Made by a program: the position numbers and the translations under genes. This document shows, in pieces, positions 2,713-60,884 of a DNA stretch of 64,000 nt. Positions within the stretch are counted from its first letter, which is position 1. Each line of letters opens with the position of its first letter. Origin of the DNA: a virus (lineage: Duplodnaviria > Caudoviricetes); IMG/VR virus record IMGVR_UViG_2884371665_000002; one strand, written 5' to 3'. The notes beneath the pieces are model-generated. The model was not told the DNA's origin. It did not search any database and was given only the letters and a program-made list of their open reading frames with translations.

Positions 2713-3993
2713 TTAAGACTCTGAAACCGGATCTGGTTGCAAATTCATTTCCCGGATCATTCGCCGTTCGTCAATATGAGCGTAGTGCTTCAAATATTCT
2801 ATTGAACTTAATCCCATCATTCGAGCCGTCGTGTGTACGTCAGTGGCATGTTCGTTCAAATTATGGTCGGCAAACGTCTTTCGGGCTGACTTAGTGGTCA
2901 ACGTTTTATGAAACCCTAAATAGGCTGAAATCAGCGTAAGACCGTCGTTAAACTGCGTCAGCGAGCAGGTCGGTAGTTTATCAAACCCGCCGTATTTTTC
3001 TGCCAGGCTAAAGTTTATTGGCTTGAGTGGGGCTATCAAATACTTTTTGGTTTTCTTCCGTTTCATCCGAATGAACGAAACGCCCGATACCACCCGCAAA
3101 TAGCTTGATGGAGCAGCCACAAACTGTTTATATTCGGCGTGGTGGGTGCCAATCTGCTGCATAAAAATATAGGCATCCCGCAACCGTTCCAGTCGAACAG
3201 CCCGCTCGGGCTTGATGGACAATGAATGAAAATTGAAGGTTTGGAGCAGAGCCAGCTCATCGGGATAAAGAAAGACCATATCGTCAGGATCAGGTTCGTC
3301 TTTTTCCACCTTGTAGGGTTTAATGGAATTACTCCGAACGGCCTTTTTGAGCACGGCATAATCAAGCAGACTTTTGATGTAATACAGATGCTTTCCCAGA
3401 TAATTGATCGCAAATTTGCGTTGCCCCCACGCTTTAAACTCATTGAGCCAGGCTTCGTCAATCTCATCAATATAAGCCCTGGTCTGCTTGCTGTCGACCA
3501 GGTAGTCCAGGATATTGTTGGTGTATTTCTGGTAGGCTTCGTAGGTATCACCGCTAATTACATCTTTACTGGTGGCCAACTCGTCAGGGTCATCGCTAAT
3601 CCGTTCTTCGTGCTGCTTTAATAACCGTTCCAGCATGGTCTGAATGGTGTAGCGGACTCGCTTTTGCCCTCGATACACTTCCAGAACTTGTTGGGCGGTG
3701 ACGTGTACGTCGTCCTGGTCTAATAGATTGAAGGCTTTTTTTAGCTTCACCTTCATTCGCTCGAGCAATTGATTGTCCAGATCAGCCGTGGGTGCAGCAT
3801 CAGTAACTTTCTGTTTTGCCTGGTTCCAGTGCCTGGGGTTTACCTTGACATTGGTTGAAATGTCAGCCGTGTAGGTGTTGACCGTGATTCGGGCATAAAG
3901 AGCCACTTCAGCCGGTTTCGGCTTGCCCCGTTTGGAAGGTCGGTAATTGCGTCTGAGTTTGAACAGAACCTGCATTCGATTTTGGTAAAACAT
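2713..3993 (-). CDS. int: Tyrosine recombinase/integrase (Bacteroidota type: arm-binding, SAM-like and catalytic domains) with an atypical catalytic motif
   Basis: N-terminal LYARITVN...ISTNVKV...WNQ arm domain; C-terminal LTTKSARKTFA and KHYA boxes. Confidence 0.85.
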   Translation of the reverse strand: MFYQNRMQVLFKLRRNYRPSKRGKPKPAEVALYARITVNTYTADISTNVKVNPRHWNQAKQKVTDAAPTADLDNQLLERMKVKLKKAFNLLDQDDVHVTAQQVLEVYRGQKRVRYTIQTMLERLLKQHEERISDDPDELATSKDVISGDTYEAYQKYTNNILDYLVDSKQTRAYIDEIDEAWLNEFKAWGQRKFAINYLGKHLYYIKSLLDYAVLKKAVRSNSIKPYKVEKDEPDPDDMVFLYPDELALLQTFNFHSLSIKPERAVRLERLRDAYIFMQQIGTHHAEYKQFVAAPSSYLRVVSGVSFIRMKRKKTKKYLIAPLKPINFSLAEKYGGFDKLPTCSLTQFNDGLTLISAYLGFHKTLTTKSARKTFADHNLNEHATDVHTTARMMGLSSIEYLKHYAHIDERRMIREMNLQPDPVSES

Positions 3994-4340: not shown

Positions 4341-4847
4341 CTACTTTGAAGCCAGAGGTATATGCGTTCTAAAAGCATACGGTGCATTGACTAAACTTAA
4401 TCCAAGTCTGTTCATAGCAAGTAATGCATTTTCGACTACTGCCTCATAACCTAAAGTCGGTTGATTGGTATCACCCTCAGACTTTCCCAGTACTGATTCA
4501 AGCATCCGCTGAAGACCATCAATCTGTCGATTCTTAGTGCGAATTTCTTCTTCAAAGAAATGTCTTAACTCACCGATGTCTTCAGCCATCTTTTTTGCTA
4601 TCTGATCGCCAAACGTTTCTTTGGGAATATCATTTTTTGTGGTGCTTGGCCCATCACCATAAAAATATGACACTGGCACCTCTAAGAACTCTGCAATCTG
4701 TGCCAGTTTGATAGCCGAAATTGTGTTGTTCTTGAGCATCGCATCAAATCCTTGGCCGGTCATTTTGAGATGCTCAAATAGGCTTTTCTTCGTTCTCCGC
4801 CTTTCCTCGAGCAGTTTTTCAATAGACTCCCTAAAATTATATTCCAT
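4341..4847 (-). CDS. CI-like HTH (Cro/C1) repressor without an S24 peptidase domain
   Basis: N-terminal HTH ...LKNNTISAIKLAQIAEFLEVPVSYFYG; divergent from the early operon. Confidence 0.8.
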   Translation of the reverse strand: MEYNFRESIEKLLEERRRTKKSLFEHLKMTGQGFDAMLKNNTISAIKLAQIAEFLEVPVSYFYGDGPSTTKNDIPKETFGDQIAKKMAEDIGELRHFFEEEIRTKNRQIDGLQRMLESVLGKSEGDTNQPTLGYEAVVENALLAMNRLGLSLVNAPYAFRTHIPLASK

Positions 4848-4898: not shown

Positions 4899-4958
4899 AA
4901 TATATATTTGGTTTTAAAACCAAATATATATTAGTATTGCAGTACAAATATTTGTACT
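4899..4958. promoter_or_regulatory. Palindromic operator candidates in the cI/cro intergenic region
   Basis: Perfect 34-bp palindrome aatatatatttggttttaaaaccaaatatatatt (4899-4932) and perfect 18-bp palindrome agtacaaatatttgtact (4941-4958). Confidence 0.6.
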
Positions 4959-9004: not shown

Positions 9005-9078
9005 GGCAGGATAGCTCAGTTGGTAGAGCATGACTCTTTAAAAGTCAAGGTCGCTGGTTCGATCCCCGCTCCTCGCCA
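9005..9078 (+). tRNA. tRNA with UUA anticodon (ochre-suppressor-like or Lys-derived), imperfect acceptor and T stems
   Basis: GGCAGGA-TA-GCTC AGTTGGTA GAGC-A-TGACT CTTTAAA AGTCA-AGGTC-GCTGG TTCGATC CCCGC-TCCT(C)GCC-A; anticodon TTA at 9038-9040. Confidence 0.8.
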
Positions 9079-53647: not shown

Positions 53648-56600
53648 GTGGCTAAAACCCAAACCGAGCGCGCCGTCATTGATTTAGTGATCAATGGTCA
53701 GCAAGCCAAAACGACGCTGAAAGAAGTCAGCCTGGCCGTCACCAAAACGCGCAGCGAGCTGAATAAAATGAAGGAGGCCGACAATCCGGAGGCCTACCGG
53801 GCGAAACTCGCCGAAATGCACAAGCTGGTTTCAGCCCAACGGGACATGACGGCCCGGATCAACGATTCGACAACGGCCTGGGGACGATTCAAAAAAGAGA
53901 TGGCTACCGTTGCCGTTGGCGTCGTAGGAGGCAATGTGATCACCTTCGCTCTCCAGCAGTTAGCCGCTCTGATTCCAGGTACGATCGATCGGACCATGAA
54001 GCTCAAGGATGCCTTTGCCGATATTGAAAAAGCAACGGGTCTAAGTGCAGAAGGGGTTCAGAAACTCAACAAGGAACTTAAAAACATCGATACGCGCACC
54101 AGCAACAAGGAACTGCGCGATATCGCCGTCGCCGGCGGTCAGTTGGGTGTGGCCAATGATGAGCTGGTGGACTTTGTTAAAAATGTCGATAAAGCCGTCG
54201 TTGCCCTGGGGGATGAATTTACGGGTGGTGTTGACCAGGTGGCCAAGGAGATTGGCGGCATCGCCAAACTCTTCGACGAAACCCGGAGCCAGGCGATTGG
54301 TACCAGCATCAACAGCATCGGCTCAGCGCTCAACGAACTGGGTGCCGCTGGGGCGGCTACCTCGCCGGTCGTAGCCGAGTTTACCACCCGCATGGGTCAG
54401 CTGGGCAACCTGGCTCCCAAACTGCATGAAACACTGGGTTTGGGAGCCGCCCTGCAGGAACTGGGTTTGACGGCCGAGATTGCCGCCAGTGGTTTGTCAG
54501 GATTGATGTTAACTGCGGCTAATAAATCCGATCTGTTCGCTCAGCATCTGGGCATGAGCAAAAAAGCGCTGGAGCAACTCATCAATACGGATCCCAATAA
54601 ATTCCTGATGATGCTGGCCCAAAGCTTTCAGGGCCTCAGCTCTACGCAGGTCGCACAGCGGTTAAAAGAGCTAAAAGTGGAGTCCCAGGAATCGATCAAG
54701 GTGATGAGCCTATTGGCGGATCAGACTGACTTCGTTGCCGAAAAACAGCAGTTAGCTAATAAAGCGATGATTGAGGGGACTTCCCTCACGTCTGAATTCG
54801 ACAAGAAAAATCACCAGCTGGCTCGTGATCTGAAGGAATTAAACGAATGGTTTAATAGCCTGCTCACCAGCGAAGGGCTACAGAATTTTCTGGTATCAGC
54901 GACCCACAATGCCGTCGAGTTTATTCGGGTATTGCCCCAGGTAGGAAAATGGCTCTCCAGTAATAAAGATCTGCTTTACCTATTAGCCGCTGCTACCGTC
55001 GTCTACTATGGCAATCTGATCAAAGCCACCGCAGCTGCGATTGCTAATACAACCGCTGAACTGGCCCGTAAGGCTGCCTATGAAATAGGCTTTCGTTGGC
55101 TGGTTATTTCGGAAGCAGCCACGAAAGCCTATGCCTTTACCACGGCCGTACTGACGGGTCAGATTTCCCTTCAGACAGCTGCGGTCACACTAGCACGGGG
55201 AGCCTGGTCGGCTCTATCAGCCATTATGCTGGCCAACCCGATCGGCGTTATTGTCGCCGGCATGGCTGCCCTGGCTTATGCGGTCAAACTGTATTCTGAT
55301 AATACAGAAACGGCCATTCGGCTGGAGCGAGAGAAAGTTCGTCTTCAACGCGATATGCAGGTATTAACTGAACTGCAAAGCAAGACGCTGGCCACGCTCA
55401 ACGAGCAGCTTCAGGATTACACGGAAATGACCAGTGCCGAACGGGCTGAGTACGTCAAAAATGTAGCCGTGGCCCGGCTCGATCTGGAGAGTCGGCTGGC
55501 CCGGATGAAGGCACGCGAGAAAGAAATGGAAATGCTGGCAGCCGAACCAACCCTTTGGCAGCAACTGTGGATTGCTATCAAGTCAGGAGGAGATCCGGCT
55601 AAAATGGCTCAGAATGTCACTCAGCAGGTAGCCGACAACATGCGGGGTGTCCGGGAGCAGTTTGCGGCAGGAATCACCGCCGTCGAGGGCCAGCTGAAAC
55701 AGTACGATTCGATCTTCAAACAGATCGAACGTTACGAAAAACCGACCAAAACGGGCGGGGGAAAACTCCGTACCATCACGGATCCGGAAGATGCGAAAAG
55801 TAAAACCGATAAAAAGAAAGCGGAAGCCAGGCGTCAGGAAGATGAACTGGAAGGGATGCTGTCTGATGCCCGCGAGCGGACCATGCGGGGAGAGCGCTCC
55901 CAGTACGAAAACGAAGTCGCAGCGTTTGCCGATAAATACAGTAAAATGTACACGCTGGCCAAGGACAACGAGGCTAAAATTAATGAAATCCGAATCCTGA
56001 GCCTGGCTGAATGGGCTGAGATCGAAAAGCGATTCTACGAGAAGCAGGATGAAGATGCCCGTAAACAGCAGGAAAAGGACAATAAGATTGGCTTTGAGGC
56101 TGCGTTGAATGAGGCCGATCAAACGCATTCGGACACCATTGGGAGCATCGAGCGAACGCAGGCCAAAGCGCCGGCCGCCATCGGTGATGCCGAGGTGCAG
56201 ATGCAGAAGCTCCAGGCTGATCAGGTTTATCTGACGCAGAAACTTTTACTCGAGCAAACTTTTGCCCAGCAATCCGCCGACACCCAGCGACAGCTGACTG
56301 AAAACTGGAATGAGCAGGTAAAACTTCGGGCGACCACGGAGCACCAGTATGCCGAGCAGATGAAGCAGGCCGAATGGGCGCTTCAGGATGCCAAACGTGC
56401 CGCCATGCAGCAGGGACTGGAGGTGCTGATGGGCTTTTTAGGAAAAGGTACGATTGCCTATAAAGCGGCTTTGATTGCTCAGAAAGCCTTCGCCATCGCC
56501 CAGGTTGTTGTCGATCTGAATCGGGAGATTGCCCAGATTTATGCAAACCCTGCCTGGTCGCTGATGCCAGACGGTGGACTCGCCATAAAAACAGTTAATG

Positions 56601-57118
56601 CGACGGCCGCTAAAGTTCGGGCTGGTATCAGCATCGCCTCGATTGTGGGGACTACGATTGGTGAACTGGCCGCCAAAGCGGACGGTGGTTTTACGGGCAT
56701 GCGGGAATTATATCCGGGTGCTGGTGGACCCAGCGGCTTTACCAATGGGCCAACGCTGTTTAACATGGGCCGTCGATCGTACATTGCTGGCGAAGCCGGC
56801 CGGGAGTTTGTCATTTCGAACCGCGCTCTACAAAATCCAGTCGTCGCCGATTTTGCCCGCATGATGGATGTAGCCCAGCGAACGGGTAATTACTCGCAAT
56901 TGATGGCAGAGGCTCAGGCCAGTACCTCAGCAACGTCGGCTCCATCGAGCAGCAATTCGGGCAGCAATGATGATTTGCTGATGCTGCTCCTTCAGGAACA
57001 GCGCCTGACGCGCAGTTCCCTGGAGAAGAAAAACAGCCAGAACGTTGCCTTGAACTACCGCTTGTTTGAGCAGTATCGGGATAATCTGGAAGAAGCCCGG
57101 ATCGATAATAAATTGTAA
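53648..57118 (+). CDS. Tail tape measure protein (TP901-family core)
   Basis: ADIEKATGL...DTRTSNKELRDIAVAGGQLG core; hydrophobic Ala-rich middle; long coiled coil; EAGREFVI near the C-terminus. Confidence 0.9.
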   Translation: MAKTQTERAVIDLVINGQQAKTTLKEVSLAVTKTRSELNKMKEADNPEAYRAKLAEMHKLVSAQRDMTARINDSTTAWGRFKKEMATVAVGVVGGNVITFALQQLAALIPGTIDRTMKLKDAFADIEKATGLSAEGVQKLNKELKNIDTRTSNKELRDIAVAGGQLGVANDELVDFVKNVDKAVVALGDEFTGGVDQVAKEIGGIAKLFDETRSQAIGTSINSIGSALNELGAAGAATSPVVAEFTTRMGQLGNLAPKLHETLGLGAALQELGLTAEIAASGLSGLMLTAANKSDLFAQHLGMSKKALEQLINTDPNKFLMMLAQSFQGLSSTQVAQRLKELKVESQESIKVMSLLADQTDFVAEKQQLANKAMIEGTSLTSEFDKKNHQLARDLKELNEWFNSLLTSEGLQNFLVSATHNAVEFIRVLPQVGKWLSSNKDLLYLLAAATVVYYGNLIKATAAAIANTTAELARKAAYEIGFRWLVISEAATKAYAFTTAVLTGQISLQTAAVTLARGAWSALSAIMLANPIGVIVAGMAALAYAVKLYSDNTETAIRLEREKVRLQRDMQVLTELQSKTLATLNEQLQDYTEMTSAERAEYVKNVAVARLDLESRLARMKAREKEMEMLAAEPTLWQQLWIAIKSGGDPAKMAQNVTQQVADNMRGVREQFAAGITAVEGQLKQYDSIFKQIERYEKPTKTGGGKLRTITDPEDAKSKTDKKKAEARRQEDELEGMLSDARERTMRGERSQYENEVAAFADKYSKMYTLAKDNEAKINEIRILSLAEWAEIEKRFYEKQDEDARKQQEKDNKIGFEAALNEADQTHSDTIGSIERTQAKAPAAIGDAEVQMQKLQADQVYLTQKLLLEQTFAQQSADTQRQLTENWNEQVKLRATTEHQYAEQMKQAEWALQDAKRAAMQQGLEVLMGFLGKGTIAYKAALIAQKAFAIAQVVVDLNREIAQIYANPAWSLMPDGGLAIKTVNATAAKVRAGISIASIVGTTIGELAAKADGGFTGMRELYPGAGGPSGFTNGPTLFNMGRRSYIAGEAGREFVISNRALQNPVVADFARMMDVAQRTGNYSQLMAEAQASTSATSAPSSSNSGSNDDLLMLLLQEQRLTRSSLEKKNSQNVALNYRLFEQYRDNLEEARIDNKL

Positions 57119-57228: not shown

Positions 57229-57867
57229 ATGAAATCAGTATTTACCTTGATTGGCCTTGTGGTTTCCATTGCCTGCTTTGGTCAATTAAATCCGAGTCCC
57301 GTCGAAATGCCAATCGATAGTAGTTCTGGAGGCATACAGTTCCGGGAAGTGGTTACGCTCGACCCATCGTTGGATACCAAAGCCATTGTTCAGAAGGCCA
57401 AAAACTGGGTAGCCACAGCCTACCGGAGTGCGAATGATGTAGTGCAGCAGTTTGATCCGGAAACAGGCATTCTTATCGTGAAAGGTCAGTTTCCCGTTAC
57501 ACGAACCAGTTACTATGGGAATCAGGTGACGACAGCAGCTATCACAGTTTACCAGACGCTAACCATTGAAGCCAGACCAGGTCGATACCGGGCTACCTTA
57601 AACAATTATGAAATTGGTGCAGCTGGCCAGCGGGCAGTACTGGCAGCCAACCGGGGGTCAATGGGCCGGGATGAGTATATGGAACTGGTTCGCAAGCAGG
57701 CTGCTGGCATGAGTATGGAGCGAACTATTATCAAATCTGCTGAAAAGAATCTGGACTCGACCATTACCTCAGAACGATTGTTTATGGCGGATGTCAAGCA
57801 GCAGAGTTTAAACCTCTTGGAGATGCTCAAACGGCACATGCAGAAGAAGGCCGAAAAAGACTGGTAG
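57229..57867 (+). CDS. Secreted DUF4468-like protein (moron)
   Basis: Signal peptide; IVQKAKNWVA..Y.SANDVVQ..DPETG.LIVKG pattern. Confidence 0.65.
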   Translation: MKSVFTLIGLVVSIACFGQLNPSPVEMPIDSSSGGIQFREVVTLDPSLDTKAIVQKAKNWVATAYRSANDVVQQFDPETGILIVKGQFPVTRTSYYGNQVTTAAITVYQTLTIEARPGRYRATLNNYEIGAAGQRAVLAANRGSMGRDEYMELVRKQAAGMSMERTIIKSAEKNLDSTITSERLFMADVKQQSLNLLEMLKRHMQKKAEKDW

Positions 57868-57941
57868 TTTCACTAGTCTAGGACAGTTATATATAAATTA
57901 GCCCAATCGATAGGATGGGCTTTTTTTGTTACTTTTGCGAC

Positions 57942-58058
57942 GCTGAGTTCATTTATTCCAAGGGTCGGCACCGCCAGCAAACAGGCGGTGCTGTACCCCC
58001 GTATCCGTTTGACTGTAATAGTCCGGATAGTTTTTCGACCCTTGGGCGTGAACTCAGC
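57942..58058 (+). ncRNA. Structured multibranch RNA, candidate C4/CI-like antisense regulator
   Basis: Perfect -7 box tacttttg (57930-57937). Stems: 57942-51/58049-58 (10 bp), 57958-67/58036-45 (10 bp), hairpin 57968-57991, and tatccg/cggata hairpin 58002-58029. Confidence 0.65.
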
Positions 58059-58106
58059 AGCGGGTCAGGCAGCACCGCCTGTTTGTTGCTGGTAGCCATC
58101 ACTGTT

Positions 58107-58268
58107 ATGCCCAAACTTTCCCAGACCGAAATCGACCGTCGAAAACTCGAACGGCTCGAAGCGCGTATCCTTATTCTACGCAGTAAAATTGAGCAGTTAC
58201 AGCAAGGATTAAATACCAGTATTGCCCAGGCGCAAAAACTCAGCTCATCACTGGCCAATCAACAATAA
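58107..58268 (+). CDS. 53-aa coiled-coil protein downstream of the structured RNA
   Basis: MPKLSQTEIDRRKLERLEARILILRSKIEQLQQ...; the upstream extension to 57915 runs through the RNA. Confidence 0.5.
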   Translation: MPKLSQTEIDRRKLERLEARILILRSKIEQLQQGLNTSIAQAQKLSSSLANQQ

Positions 58269-58529
58269 AAACTGGTTTTCCTGTTTATACCGTACCCACC
58301 GTAACTTGCTTTTTATCAAGTATTAAACCGTAATTCTTTGGAAGAACACTACTCTAGTATTTAGCTTAATTCCTGTTCAATCGGTTAAAAGCAGCAACAA
58401 TGACATCTTTGCGGGTTATGGCAACAGCATTCTGAAGTTGTTGGATCGTCTTATAGCCCGACCGGATATCTTCCTGCATCATGTGAGGTAAAGGTTTGGC
58501 CCGATATTTAGCCTTCTTAAACGAAAAGA

Positions 58530-60281
58530 TCAATTTGAAAACTGAATACTCTGAAATAGCGTGATCATTTCTTTTGGAATAACCGAATGCATCTTCTTTA
58601 AGACTAAAAGTGCATTGCGGAAATGGTAAAGATTTTTTGTAAATGCCTTTAAAAAAACTTCACTTATTAAATCTTTACCCCGACAATTCAATAACCAGGC
58701 AGGGTAGTTTAGTTTTTGTCCCCCAATAAACTCTACCTCCACTGGTGTGTAATCAATTGTTGGGCTATTAGTTAAAGTAGCTGCTTTCAGATACGGCTCT
58801 ACTTGGTTGAAGATATAGTCTGCTATTAACTGTAATTCAACTGAAGACATCTCTGTAAACTTGGCTTCCTGACCAAACGCTATATTGACCCCCGCAATCT
58901 TTGGAGCCTTATCAAAGTGCAGCATTACAGCATAGACCAAAATTGGATCGATTAAATAGTTTTCTATGCTATAACGATTTAATACAAATAAATTCGGGGA
59001 ACTTTCATTTCCGGCATCTTCATCAATTAAACCATATATAAAGGTGTTCAATCCTGAGTTGACTAATTTTTTTACCCAATTATCAACTACAGTTTTGCCG
59101 CCAGATTTTTCGTTTGTGGATGCAGGAATGAATACAATTTGCCGATCGCGAGATAAGGATTCGACATCGTTAAGATGGCCGTAAATAGTTGTGTAAAACG
59201 AAACATCATCCTTGTCTTCCACAAGAACGTATTTGGTGTGCTCACCGACAAAGAGATAGCCTGATGTTAATAAAGAAATAGTACTACTTTTTGATTTAGA
59301 GGGAAGGATTGCGGTTTTATATTTTGTCATTTCATAAATTGAACTTTCAGGGGCGAATGCAATCGTTGATGGTGAATGTGTAGTCATGATCACCTTAGCG
59401 CCGTACTTTTTTACAATTGTATTAACGATATTTTCTATGAAATTTTTCGCCAATTGAGGGTGTAAGTGAGCATCTGGTTCATCTAATAAAAACAATGAAG
59501 GTACTTCTCCATTGACTTGCCCAACAAAAACGTGGAGCAAAAGCGTGATAATCACTTTTTCACCAGAAGATAAATAGGAGGGTTCAATACGATTATCGTG
59601 TCCAGTAGGACCATCTATATCAATAAAAGTCAAATGAAAGGTGGAAGAGTAATCCTTTTCCGTAGGTACCGTAATCCTATATGGAAGGTTAGCGTTAGCC
59701 AATAAGCTGTTTAGAATGTCCCATGGCTCATCTCCATATAATTCAACAAATTTTTCATGAGGCCAGCCTCTAAGGTTTATTTTGCTCAGGTAATTCGCCT
59801 TATATGTAAGGAAATACTGGTTAATTGAGGCTAAACTGACATTCTGTATACTAGTTTGTGGTCGATAATTTTCGTCAAATTCTTTAAATGTAATGTTGTT
59901 GATATCTAATCCTTTAGCCTTGAGATGATCGCTGATGGGCTTTGGACCTTGATGGCCTTCGAGCTCTCTTTTAAAGAATCCTTCATATAGGGCTTTCATA
60001 TCAGTTAAATAAGTCATCATATTGCCAGTAGCACTTTTAAGCTCTGGCCAATCGGCACCTAATGAAACCCAGTTGTTTGTAAGAGTAGTATCTATAATAT
60101 CTACGGCTGGAGAAGTTACATTTTTCCCCATTGTATTTCTAGCTTGCAGTGTTCTGGTTAACTGTTTTAGCAAAGCTGTTTTTCCAACCCCATTGATGCC
60201 GGTAATGACGACAAAATCAGGCAAATCGTCAGTTTCGAATTTGGTAAGTGGAGGCTGATCAGTATATATTTTGATCCTCAT
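58530..60281 (-). CDS. ABC-type (AAA_21-like) ATPase fused to a TOPRIM/DUF4435-like domain; OLD-family-like, putative defence nuclease
   Basis: Walker A GINGVGKT, signature LSSGEK, Walker B LFLLDEPD, H-loop TTHS; TOPRIM VLVED...LIDED...YSIENY; AT-rich. Confidence 0.8.
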   Translation of the reverse strand: MRIKIYTDQPPLTKFETDDLPDFVVITGINGVGKTALLKQLTRTLQARNTMGKNVTSPAVDIIDTTLTNNWVSLGADWPELKSATGNMMTYLTDMKALYEGFFKRELEGHQGPKPISDHLKAKGLDINNITFKEFDENYRPQTSIQNVSLASINQYFLTYKANYLSKINLRGWPHEKFVELYGDEPWDILNSLLANANLPYRITVPTEKDYSSTFHLTFIDIDGPTGHDNRIEPSYLSSGEKVIITLLLHVFVGQVNGEVPSLFLLDEPDAHLHPQLAKNFIENIVNTIVKKYGAKVIMTTHSPSTIAFAPESSIYEMTKYKTAILPSKSKSSTISLLTSGYLFVGEHTKYVLVEDKDDVSFYTTIYGHLNDVESLSRDRQIVFIPASTNEKSGGKTVVDNWVKKLVNSGLNTFIYGLIDEDAGNESSPNLFVLNRYSIENYLIDPILVYAVMLHFDKAPKIAGVNIAFGQEAKFTEMSSVELQLIADYIFNQVEPYLKAATLTNSPTIDYTPVEVEFIGGQKLNYPAWLLNCRGKDLISEVFLKAFTKNLYHFRNALLVLKKMHSVIPKEMITLFQSIQFSN

Positions 60282-60305: not shown

Positions 60306-60884
60306 TTAATTGGTTTGCATTAGACCACGATGTCGCAGATAACTGTACAGCGTAGACTTTGATATGCCCAGCTGCCTGGCTATCTCTTTCACAGGTAACT
60401 TCCCTTCTTTATAGAGGCTTTCAGCAATTCGTGATTTATTCTCCGCTTCTTTTGATAATCCGGTCGGCCGACCGAGCAGTTGGCCACGCCGTCGAGCGGA
60501 TTGCAAACCTGCCTGGGTACGCTCTTTAATCAACTCCCGCTCAAACTCCGCCAGACTGGCAAAGATTCGGAACACGAGTCGACCCTGTGCTGTCGTGGTA
60601 TCGACGGGATCGTTTAGACTAATGAGTCCAATACTGTTTCTCTCCAGTACGTTAACCATCTCTACCAGGTGAGCTAGGGATCGGCCGAGCCGATCGAGTT
60701 TCCAGATTACTACCGTATCGCCTTCGCGCACGTGCTCGAGTAGTTTCGTCAGTTCAGGCCGGTCGCCTTTGGCTCCCGAGGCTTTTTCCTGAAAAATCTT
60801 TTCACAGCCCTGTGCTTTGAGAGCATCGAGCTGCATGGATAAATTCTGGTCCTGGGTGGACACGCGGGCGTAGCCGATTTTCAT
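60306..60884 (-). CDS. Serine recombinase (resolvase/invertase family) with a C-terminal HTH
   Basis: IGYARVSTQDQ, WKLDRLGRS, EFERELIKER, ISKSTLYSY. Confidence 0.92.
   Translation of the reverse strand: MKIGYARVSTQDQNLSMQLDALKAQGCEKIFQEKASGAKGDRPELTKLLEHVREGDTVVIWKLDRLGRSLAHLVEMVNVLERNSIGLISLNDPVDTTTAQGRLVFRIFASLAEFERELIKERTQAGLQSARRRGQLLGRPTGLSKEAENKSRIAESLYKEGKLPVKEIARQLGISKSTLYSYLRHRGLMQTN

Follow-up and report, generated by a model that had tools for sequence, protein, structure and literature searches.

Antisense RNAs that are encoded in a leader and act as gates on early or antirepressor genes (P1/P7 C4, N15 CA, P4 CI and IsrK) have, to our knowledge, been characterised only in phages of Proteobacteria. 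The Rfam consensus of C4 has a closing stem of 7 + 10 bp around two hairpins and a 7-nt junction, and the P1 record for the immI operon gives the order promoter, a1, b1, C4, a2, b2, icd and ant1. In the P1 sequence, the a' element in the junction pairs 3 nt past the closing stem, and the b' element in a hairpin loop pairs beside the start of icd. C4 and Icd control Ant (PMC8201110). P4 CI pairs with the flanking seqA and seqC and terminates transcription, and IsrK of the Gifsy-1 prophage is a short terminated RNA made together with a read-through mRNA from one promoter (PMC4825925).

The window, here meaning the whole 64,000-nt stretch of DNA that was analysed, is a siphophage prophage with a tyrosine integrase at its left end (2713-3993, minus strand). 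An earlier note, made from the letters of this DNA, had proposed near its right end a multibranch RNA with an internal arm complementary to a site shortly before a small ORF, as a Bacteroidota analogue of C4 and CI. The RNA and the pairing, which covaries, are genuine. The architecture, the site layout and AntA genes behind four relatives agree with such an analogue, while membership of the C4 family was not borne out. With the Rfam models, P1 c4 scored 68.8 bits and c4-a1b1 51 bits as positive controls; neither C4 (RF01695, clan CL00128) nor c4-a1b1 (RF03163) had a match at E ≤ 10 in 57800-58400 or in L002, a second copy of the RNA, and neither had a match at gathering (45 bits for C4) in the whole window. 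The features of the locus are as follows.

57229-57867: DUF4468 lipoprotein-like moron, between the tape-measure gene and the RNA
57900-57928, plus strand: intrinsic terminator of the upstream DUF4468 gene, read from the sequence as the stem AGCCCA/TGGGCT and a T-run
57930-57937, plus strand: Bacteroidota-type -7 promoter box TACTTTTG (TAnnTTTG), kept in homologs
57942-57951, plus strand: P1 5' strand, GCTGAGTTCA, 10 perfect bp with 58049-58058
57952-57957, plus strand: J1/2, U-rich bulge on the 5' strand only
57958-57967, plus strand: P2 5' strand, CCAAGGGTCG, 10 perfect bp with 58036-58045
57968-57991, plus strand: hairpin P3, with 5' arm GCACCGCC, loop AGCAAACA and 3' arm GGCGGTGC
57974-57993, plus strand: P5 5' strand (P3 loop, P3 3' arm and UG), pairs with 58070-58092
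57994-58001, plus strand: J3/4, UACCCCCG, nearly invariant columns
58002-58029, plus strand: hairpin P4, with the conserved loop UGUAAUrG
58036-58045, plus strand: P2 3' strand, CGACCCTTGG
58049-58058, plus strand: P1 3' strand, TGAACTCAGC
58059-58069, plus strand: linker, AGCGGGTCAGG, conserved; CGGG at 58061-58064 pairs with CCCG at 57998-58001
58070-58095, plus strand: tail, the P5 3' strand, CAGCACCGCC plus TGTTTGTTGCTGGTA
58107-58268, plus strand: 53-aa coiled-coil small ORF; homologs of it lie at an equal offset in L005, L006, L016 and L054

The likeness to C4 lies in the design. Both this RNA and P1/P7 C4 have a two-part closing stem and a three-way junction with two hairpins. As in P1 C4, a junction element pairs just 3' of the closing stem (a'/a2 there, J3/4:linker here), a hairpin element pairs next to the start of the first ORF (b'/b2 there, P3:tail here), a look-alike site lies upstream (a1/b1 there, with the P3 5' arm as a candidate counterpart here), and a small first ORF is followed by an antirepressor, here in relatives. 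The P3 5' arm shares its core with the tail (GCACCGCC), and the two have one pairing partner; this arm belongs to a hairpin of the RNA itself and not to an upstream leader. C4 is excised by RNase P from mid-leader, and the earlier note had named processing from a leader for C4 and CI, whereas the RNA here is predicted to begin at its promoter. In place of two sites of 7-8 nt there is one continuous helix of 17-23 bp, the antisense strand is sequestered in a competing hairpin, which makes a two-state switch, the antisense hairpin comes first instead of second, the small ORF has no similarity to Icd, and the host phylum is Bacteroidota. Because of the promoter start, single helix, sequestered strand, hairpin order and unrelated ORF, together with the lack of model similarity, the RNA is classed as C4/CI-like in its working and not as a member of the family. 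By this comparison it appears to be a new Bacteroidota analogue of the C4/CI leader antisense RNAs, non-homologous or undetectably diverged, with the same overall design and another solution, in which a long helix and a hairpin contend for a shared strand.

P4 CI and N15 CA resemble the design proposed for this locus: their antisense element has, on either side within one leader, two complementary sites of like sequence, and pairing brings about premature termination before early or anti-immunity genes (PMC4825925, PMC4488713); the P3 5' arm here would take the role of the P4 seqA (PMC4825925). Those RNAs are processed and were shown to act in trans, whereas in the present RNA the candidate upstream site forms part of the molecule and the evidence supports pairing in cis only. 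IsrK is likewise a leader with two alternative structures, one of them translationally silent (PMC4825925). It differs in activating translation in trans and in belonging to the enterobacterial C4/SeqA structural group, and it has no sequence or model similarity to the RNA here. Attenuator and riboswitch platforms offer a further likeness, a shared strand that would pick either an antiterminator hairpin (P3) or a terminator helix (P5 and the U-run); the difference is that about 76 nt separate the putative terminator strands here, with a hairpin and one half of the closing stem between them.

Genomic setting and predicted transcript start

The tape-measure gene (53648-57118) is the final late gene of the window prophage. 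A DUF4468-type moron recurs between the tape measure and the RNA, or just 5' of the RNA, in the window (57229-57867), L016 (7131-7736) and L067 (567-1301). The terminator at 57900-57928 parts the RNA unit from the late operon, and in homologs a terminator likewise abuts the promoter box. The TAnnTTTG box that the earlier note had placed at 57930-57937 is present there. Such boxes alone are unremarkable (28 in the window against about 40 expected), and this one matters because its position, 5-6 nt 5' of P1 in 13/13 close homologs and in most of the distant ones, is conserved, not because of the motif itself. The transcript is predicted to start 0-2 nt 5' of P1, and the placing of the box suggests that 5' processing is unnecessary. 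The element is probably the gene for a phage RNA of about 150-190 nt with its own -7-box promoter.

Past the small ORF, G+C drops from about 0.50 to 0.37. The low-GC (0.37) island after the RNA unit carries an AAA_21/AAA_15 and DUF4435 (OLD-like) ATPase and a serine recombinase of the resolvase type (58530-60281 and 60306-60884, both on the minus strand). Because this stretch with its opposite-strand ATPase and recombinase comes after the small ORF, the RNA unit is the last one of phage character; it sits at the extreme right end and is directed towards the side of the attachment site and the integrase. In L016, L032 and L053 a small serine recombinase is again found at a distance of 0.5-2.5 kb, and L048 has one about 3.7 kb from the RNA on the other side. 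A repeat search between the two prophage ends found no att-type direct repeats of ≥14 nt.

The early-region ORFs of the window prophage gave no Pfam family. Two TATATTTG boxes stand back to back (4903-4910, plus strand, and 4921-4928, minus strand) between a 168-aa minus-strand ORF (4341-4847), which is a candidate repressor, and the plus-strand early genes; by their arrangement, the boxes at 4903-4928 are likely to be a divergent immunity-switch promoter region. The early region also has a tRNA gene at 9005-9077 (plus strand; Rfam 54.5 bits; 'tRNA-Stop' in ARAGORN) with the anticodon UUA, that is, a TAA (ochre) suppressor. The long late ORFs are open under the standard code, and wholesale recoding is not evident.

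The RNA family and its two folds

Homologs were collected by BLAST, pattern and covariance-model searches, which returned 23 distinct sequences (24 with the window), 13 of them close and 10 distant. The close members, sought in 200 same-family genomes, IMG/VR and GTDB species genomes, come from Spirosoma, Arsenicibacter, Fibrisoma, Larkinella and Cytophagales MAGs, plus three viral contigs. Distant members L063, L064, L065, L067, L070, L071, L072, L083 and L068 were found by the covariance model, which reached two other families; L068 is probably a truncated copy and was excluded from the alignments. The hosts are thus prophages of Spirosomataceae and other Cytophagales, and IMG/VR contigs. 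The RNA is infrequent and patchy, with 10/151 genomes in its own family (the window's genome counted), one genome of another family among 151 at the order level and 1/150 further genomes at the class level. Thirty-one of 39 pattern matches in genome contigs, without box and tail motif, were rejected as chance in high-GC genomes, and L009, L011 and L013 as spurious BLAST matches.

Three copies occur in the window's own genome. The second (L002, G000:C1:6371781-6371971), found by BLAST, stands directly behind a homologous tape-measure gene and has a strong terminator and no ORF. The third (L069, G000:C1:7832677-7832860), found by the covariance model, stands alone, has a strong terminator and lies about 60 nt from an opposite-strand tRNA-Ser gene, which is likely the attachment site. 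Rfam 15 gave only chance-level matches, both at gathering and at E ≤ 10, blastn against phage GenBank and a pattern scan of metagenomes returned no match to the RNA, and a literature search found no paper describing it. That this is an uncatalogued RNA family, and a candidate new family for Rfam, is well supported by the sequence comparisons.

In the window, a 173-nt stretch folds at -77.4 kcal/mol, compared with -54.0 ± 4.2 in shuffles (z = -5.6, 0/200). The two nested 10-bp stems of the earlier note are both perfect; the 3' strand of P2 is 58036-58045, 1 nt off the 58035-58044 first given. The two hairpins that it had placed within the stems are P3 (57968-57991) and P4 (58002-58029). Folded alone, each close member gives this same fold, S1, in which P1 and P2, separated by a one-sided U-rich bulge, close a three-way junction that carries P3 and P4. 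Every member has a one-sided A/U-rich bulge of 3-11 nt at J1/2, and the total length of P1 and P2 is steady at about 20-24 bp. Members have almost no P1 and P2 sequence in common, yet every 5' strand matches the 3' strand of its own RNA: the duplex has -31.3 kcal/mol with its own partner and -11.9 kcal/mol with a foreign one, the own partner being best in 14/14. Covariation was measured on a covariance-model alignment of 19 sequences, in which 92.3% of the S1 cells are paired, against 76.6% when shuffled (0/500) and about 40% with the partners slid. Compensatory change affects 11/13 pairs of P1, 6/10 of P3 (93% paired, with many G·U on the 5' arm) and 6/7 of P4. The P4 loop (UGUAAUGG) is nearly invariant and is accounted for by neither fold.

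The second fold, S2, uses the P3 3' arm, the strand common to both. This arm (GGCGGUGCUG) pairs alternatively with the tail (CAGCACCGCC) in a helix, P5, that continues into the P3 loop for 17-23 bp in total. The 19-nt complementarity noticed earlier between 57975-57993 and 58070-58088 was confirmed as 18 Watson-Crick pairs and one G·U, far beyond chance, and a repeat search extends it to 24 nt at 88%. Once the tail is part of the folded sequence, the energy minimum in the window is this long-range helix and not the multibranch structure. In the alignment, S2 overall is 94% paired (0/500 shuffles), the P5 core 95%, with 4-5/10 pairs compensatory, and the P5 extension 90%, with 6/7 compensatory. 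The CGGG of the linker begins 1-2 nt past P1, and its helix of 4-5 bp with the CCCG of J3/4 stacks under P5; it is 98.7% paired and has a single compensatory case, CCUG/CAGG in L067.

P5 has been wholly replaced in L064, L070, L065, L063, L071, L072 and L083. Its rewritten strands read GACGGUGCGUUGA / UCAACGCACCGUC in L064, AAAGUGGCGGUUUGUUAC / GUAGCAAACCGCCACUUU in L070, AGCGGUGUUGCA / UGCAACACCGCU in L071 and AGCAAUGC / GCAUUGCU in L083. The shared strand of L069 carries a G>A change that has its counterpart in both the P3 5' arm and the tail, and this three-way covariation indicates that the P3 and P5 pairings are both under selection. P3 and P5 are mutually exclusive, and P5 with the J3/4:linker helix is sterically hard to combine with closed P1 and P2, so S1 and S2 are read as alternative states. 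Covariation thus shows two mutually exclusive folds, each maintained in evolution. About 30 positions are invariant or nearly so, concentrated in the junction, the P4 loop and the linker, and the P3 loop and the tail extension vary jointly between phages. Chance is excluded because of this conservation and covariation in homologs. Across the helices, G·U occurs 116 times and A·C twice, which places the selection on the plus-strand RNA and not on duplex DNA.

Genes downstream of the RNA

The 53-aa ORF starts with the ATG at 58107, which lies 19 nt beyond 58088 and 12 nt beyond the core P5 helix. An ORF begins 6-20 nt past P5 in seven members (the window, L004, L005, L006, L016, L049 and L054), five of which encode related coiled-coil proteins of 49-61 aa and two another 60-aa family. 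Values of pN/pS were 0.31 for L005/L006, 0.38 for the pair from the second family and 0.62-0.68 for the distant coiled-coil pairs, those with the window, which suggests that the small ORFs are real genes and fast-evolving. The 53-aa protein had no family match, and a protein search returned only one near-identical protein. S2 is more stable than S1 by 1.5-11 kcal/mol in six of the seven ORF-followed members and about equal in L005. No ORF follows L002, L008, L014, L069, L012 and L007, in which the tail is kept and S1 is favoured by 6.5-17 kcal/mol; L010 has no ORF at the P5 offset, yet S2 is more stable there. Control of a small ORF, as put forward earlier, fits the seven members with an ORF behind P5 and not the roughly six without any, whose existence implies that the RNA has a function of its own or that these copies have decayed or act in trans.

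Other members end P5 differently. A run of U5-7 directly follows P5 in L012, L063, L064, L065, L067, L070, L071 and L083. The window tract UGUUUGUUG is part of the helix and has no clean U-run, so termination there is doubtful; the U/G-rich window tail UGUUUGUUGCUGG aligns with the terminator U-run of distant members, and a terminator scan flagged a weak local terminator-like site at 58066-58081. Downstream of four distant members (L067, L070, L071 and L083) there are small ORFs and then AntA/AntB antirepressors, with an AntA gene in each of the four. An integrase follows L064 and an excisionase-like HTH protein follows L065, and L072, from another family, repeats the synteny of the window (tape measure, RNA, small ORF and convergent integrase). 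AntA is absent from the window's own genome, and within IMG/VR the RNA was found at just 1/24 AntA loci. Two loci alone, L064 (at about 1700-1725) and L067 (at about 1730-1745), repeat some 20 nt of the promoter-proximal P1/P2 5' strand right ahead of the downstream start codon; the P1/P2 3' strand could pair with the translation start there, or the repeat could be a second promoter or operator.

Proposed regulation in cis and the alternative readings

From the observed family, with its two folds, strand, promoter box and synteny, we infer which fold would be ON, what would flip it, any action in trans, the regulatory outcome and the role of the 53-aa protein. The reading that we favour, with somewhat better than even confidence, is a cis-antisense gate that controls a gene of the induction type and operates as P1 C4, N15 CA and P4 CI do. 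S1 would fold first during transcription, with P1, the U-rich bulge, P2 and the junction with P3 and P4. Once made, the tail would invade P3 through its loop and form P5 with the P3 loop and 3' arm, and this helix and the one between J3/4 and the linker would displace P3 and, probably, P1/P2. In the window, S2 as the stabler state would end 7-14 nt before the AUG of the 53-aa ORF and so would shut it off, whether through occlusion of the start region, termination of part of the transcripts at the U/G-rich tract, the helix serving as an RNase III substrate, or more than one of these, whereas S1 would leave the leader free. In distant members, P5 and the U-run would make an intrinsic terminator ahead of small ORFs, AntA antirepressors or an integrase. 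A cis-acting attenuator had been named in the earlier note as an alternative, and it is the reading that the data most favour: one long helix of 17-23 bp competes with P3, and nothing points to action in trans. Counted against the cis gate are the copies without an ORF, the lack of a clean U-run in the window tail, the rarity of the RNA at AntA loci and the missing AntA of the own genome, the unusual distance of about 76 nt between the terminator strands and the fact that a simple antisense gate needs neither an invariant P4 loop nor a large conserved junction. A simple gate does not suffice to explain the stand-alone copies, the invariant P4 loop and the constant length of P1 and P2 with a one-sided bulge.

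A trans-acting immunity RNA in the strict C4/CI sense, in which the S1 RNA would pair through its P3 loop and 3' arm with the tails of its own or superinfecting transcripts and silence them, is possible though unlikely. It would make the stand-alone copies pure immunity genes and is compatible with a cis gate. These copies, with strong terminators of their own, do retain the antisense strand and the tail, three copies share one genome, the P3 loop and tail extension covary between phages as a specificity determinant would, and there are precedents in C4, CA and CI (PMC4825925; PMC8201110; PMC4488713). The antisense strand is, however, mostly buried in P3, with just 8 nt in the free loop, and the cis partner is always closer. 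Beyond the three tails, further target copies in the own genome are at chance level (20 11-mer matches against 12 in the control), and there is no sign of processing signals. We give a low probability to a sensor RNA, riboswitch-like or protein-binding, whose junction (J3/4, P4 loop and linker) would bind a ligand or protein and stabilise S1 or S2, with P5 as an expression platform in terminator and translation-blocking versions. The clustering of the near-invariant positions in the junction, P4 loop and linker, one core joined to either of two platforms (a terminator with a U-run, or a helix that adjoins the AUG) and the P4 loop that neither fold explains would suit such a sensor, but pairing in S2 already explains most of the invariant bases of the junction and linker, orphan copies lack a gene that they could regulate, the RNA is confined to phages in a very small and patchy distribution, and there is no candidate ligand. 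There is a similarly small chance that a small molecule or a host or phage protein tips S1/S2 at the junction and couples a cellular signal to the prophage induction genes (antirepressor, small ORF and integrase); if true, this would be an RNA-based induction switch that replaces, or acts beside, repressor cleavage in Bacteroidota.

The constant 20-24 bp of P1 and P2 and the always one-sided bulge suggest a geometric constraint, from which one might argue for a compact RNA, pseudoknotted or self-associating, that has its own function (such as a host-defence decoy or an RNA-only assembly) and beside which the ORF would lie by accident. On this view P1/P2 would stay closed while P5 and the J3/4:linker helix form, through fold-back at the U-rich bulge or intermolecular pairing; a dimer could keep all helices except P3, and stand-alone copies do occur. 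We regard this as quite improbable: a helix of about two turns is not easily threaded through a loop closed by P2, the fixed AUG spacing and the U-runs point to a link with expression, and dimers have no computed support, cofolding being unable to represent the crossed topology. Scarcely credible is the last pair of readings, a DNA-level inverted repeat serving as a recombinase or repressor site (for example, of the nearby serine recombinase) or a type I toxin-antitoxin module. A 24-nt inverted repeat is present and several loci have a small serine recombinase within 0.5-2.5 kb, but the 116 G·U against 2 A·C mark one RNA strand as selected, which rules out a recombinase or operator inverted repeat, P1, P2 and P4 covary without sequence conservation, and the arms are 76 bp apart. 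The type I module, also raised in the earlier note, was rejected, since the small ORF products are hydrophilic coiled coils and not a small hydrophobic toxin, there is no antisense gene or promoter, and selection is on the plus strand only. Retron, type III toxin-antitoxin, tRNA-like, ribozyme and recombinase-site readings were likewise discarded (no RT, tandem repeats, CCA or Rfam match; G·U asymmetry).

As a cis gate, the RNA would offer a handle on lysis-lysogeny control in Cytophagales phages, the early genes here being without recognisable families. It is a naturally occurring RNA with two states and with a putative specificity segment, the P3 loop and tail, that differs between phages, and because one long helix competes with a hairpin for the shared strand, both states can be read from covariation alone. 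The tails of the stand-alone copies L002, L008, L014 and L069 read CACCUCCUUU, the sequence of the anti-Shine-Dalgarno 3' end of 16S rRNA, a match that may be coincidence; their partner strand, AGG(C/U)GGUG, is Shine-Dalgarno-like.
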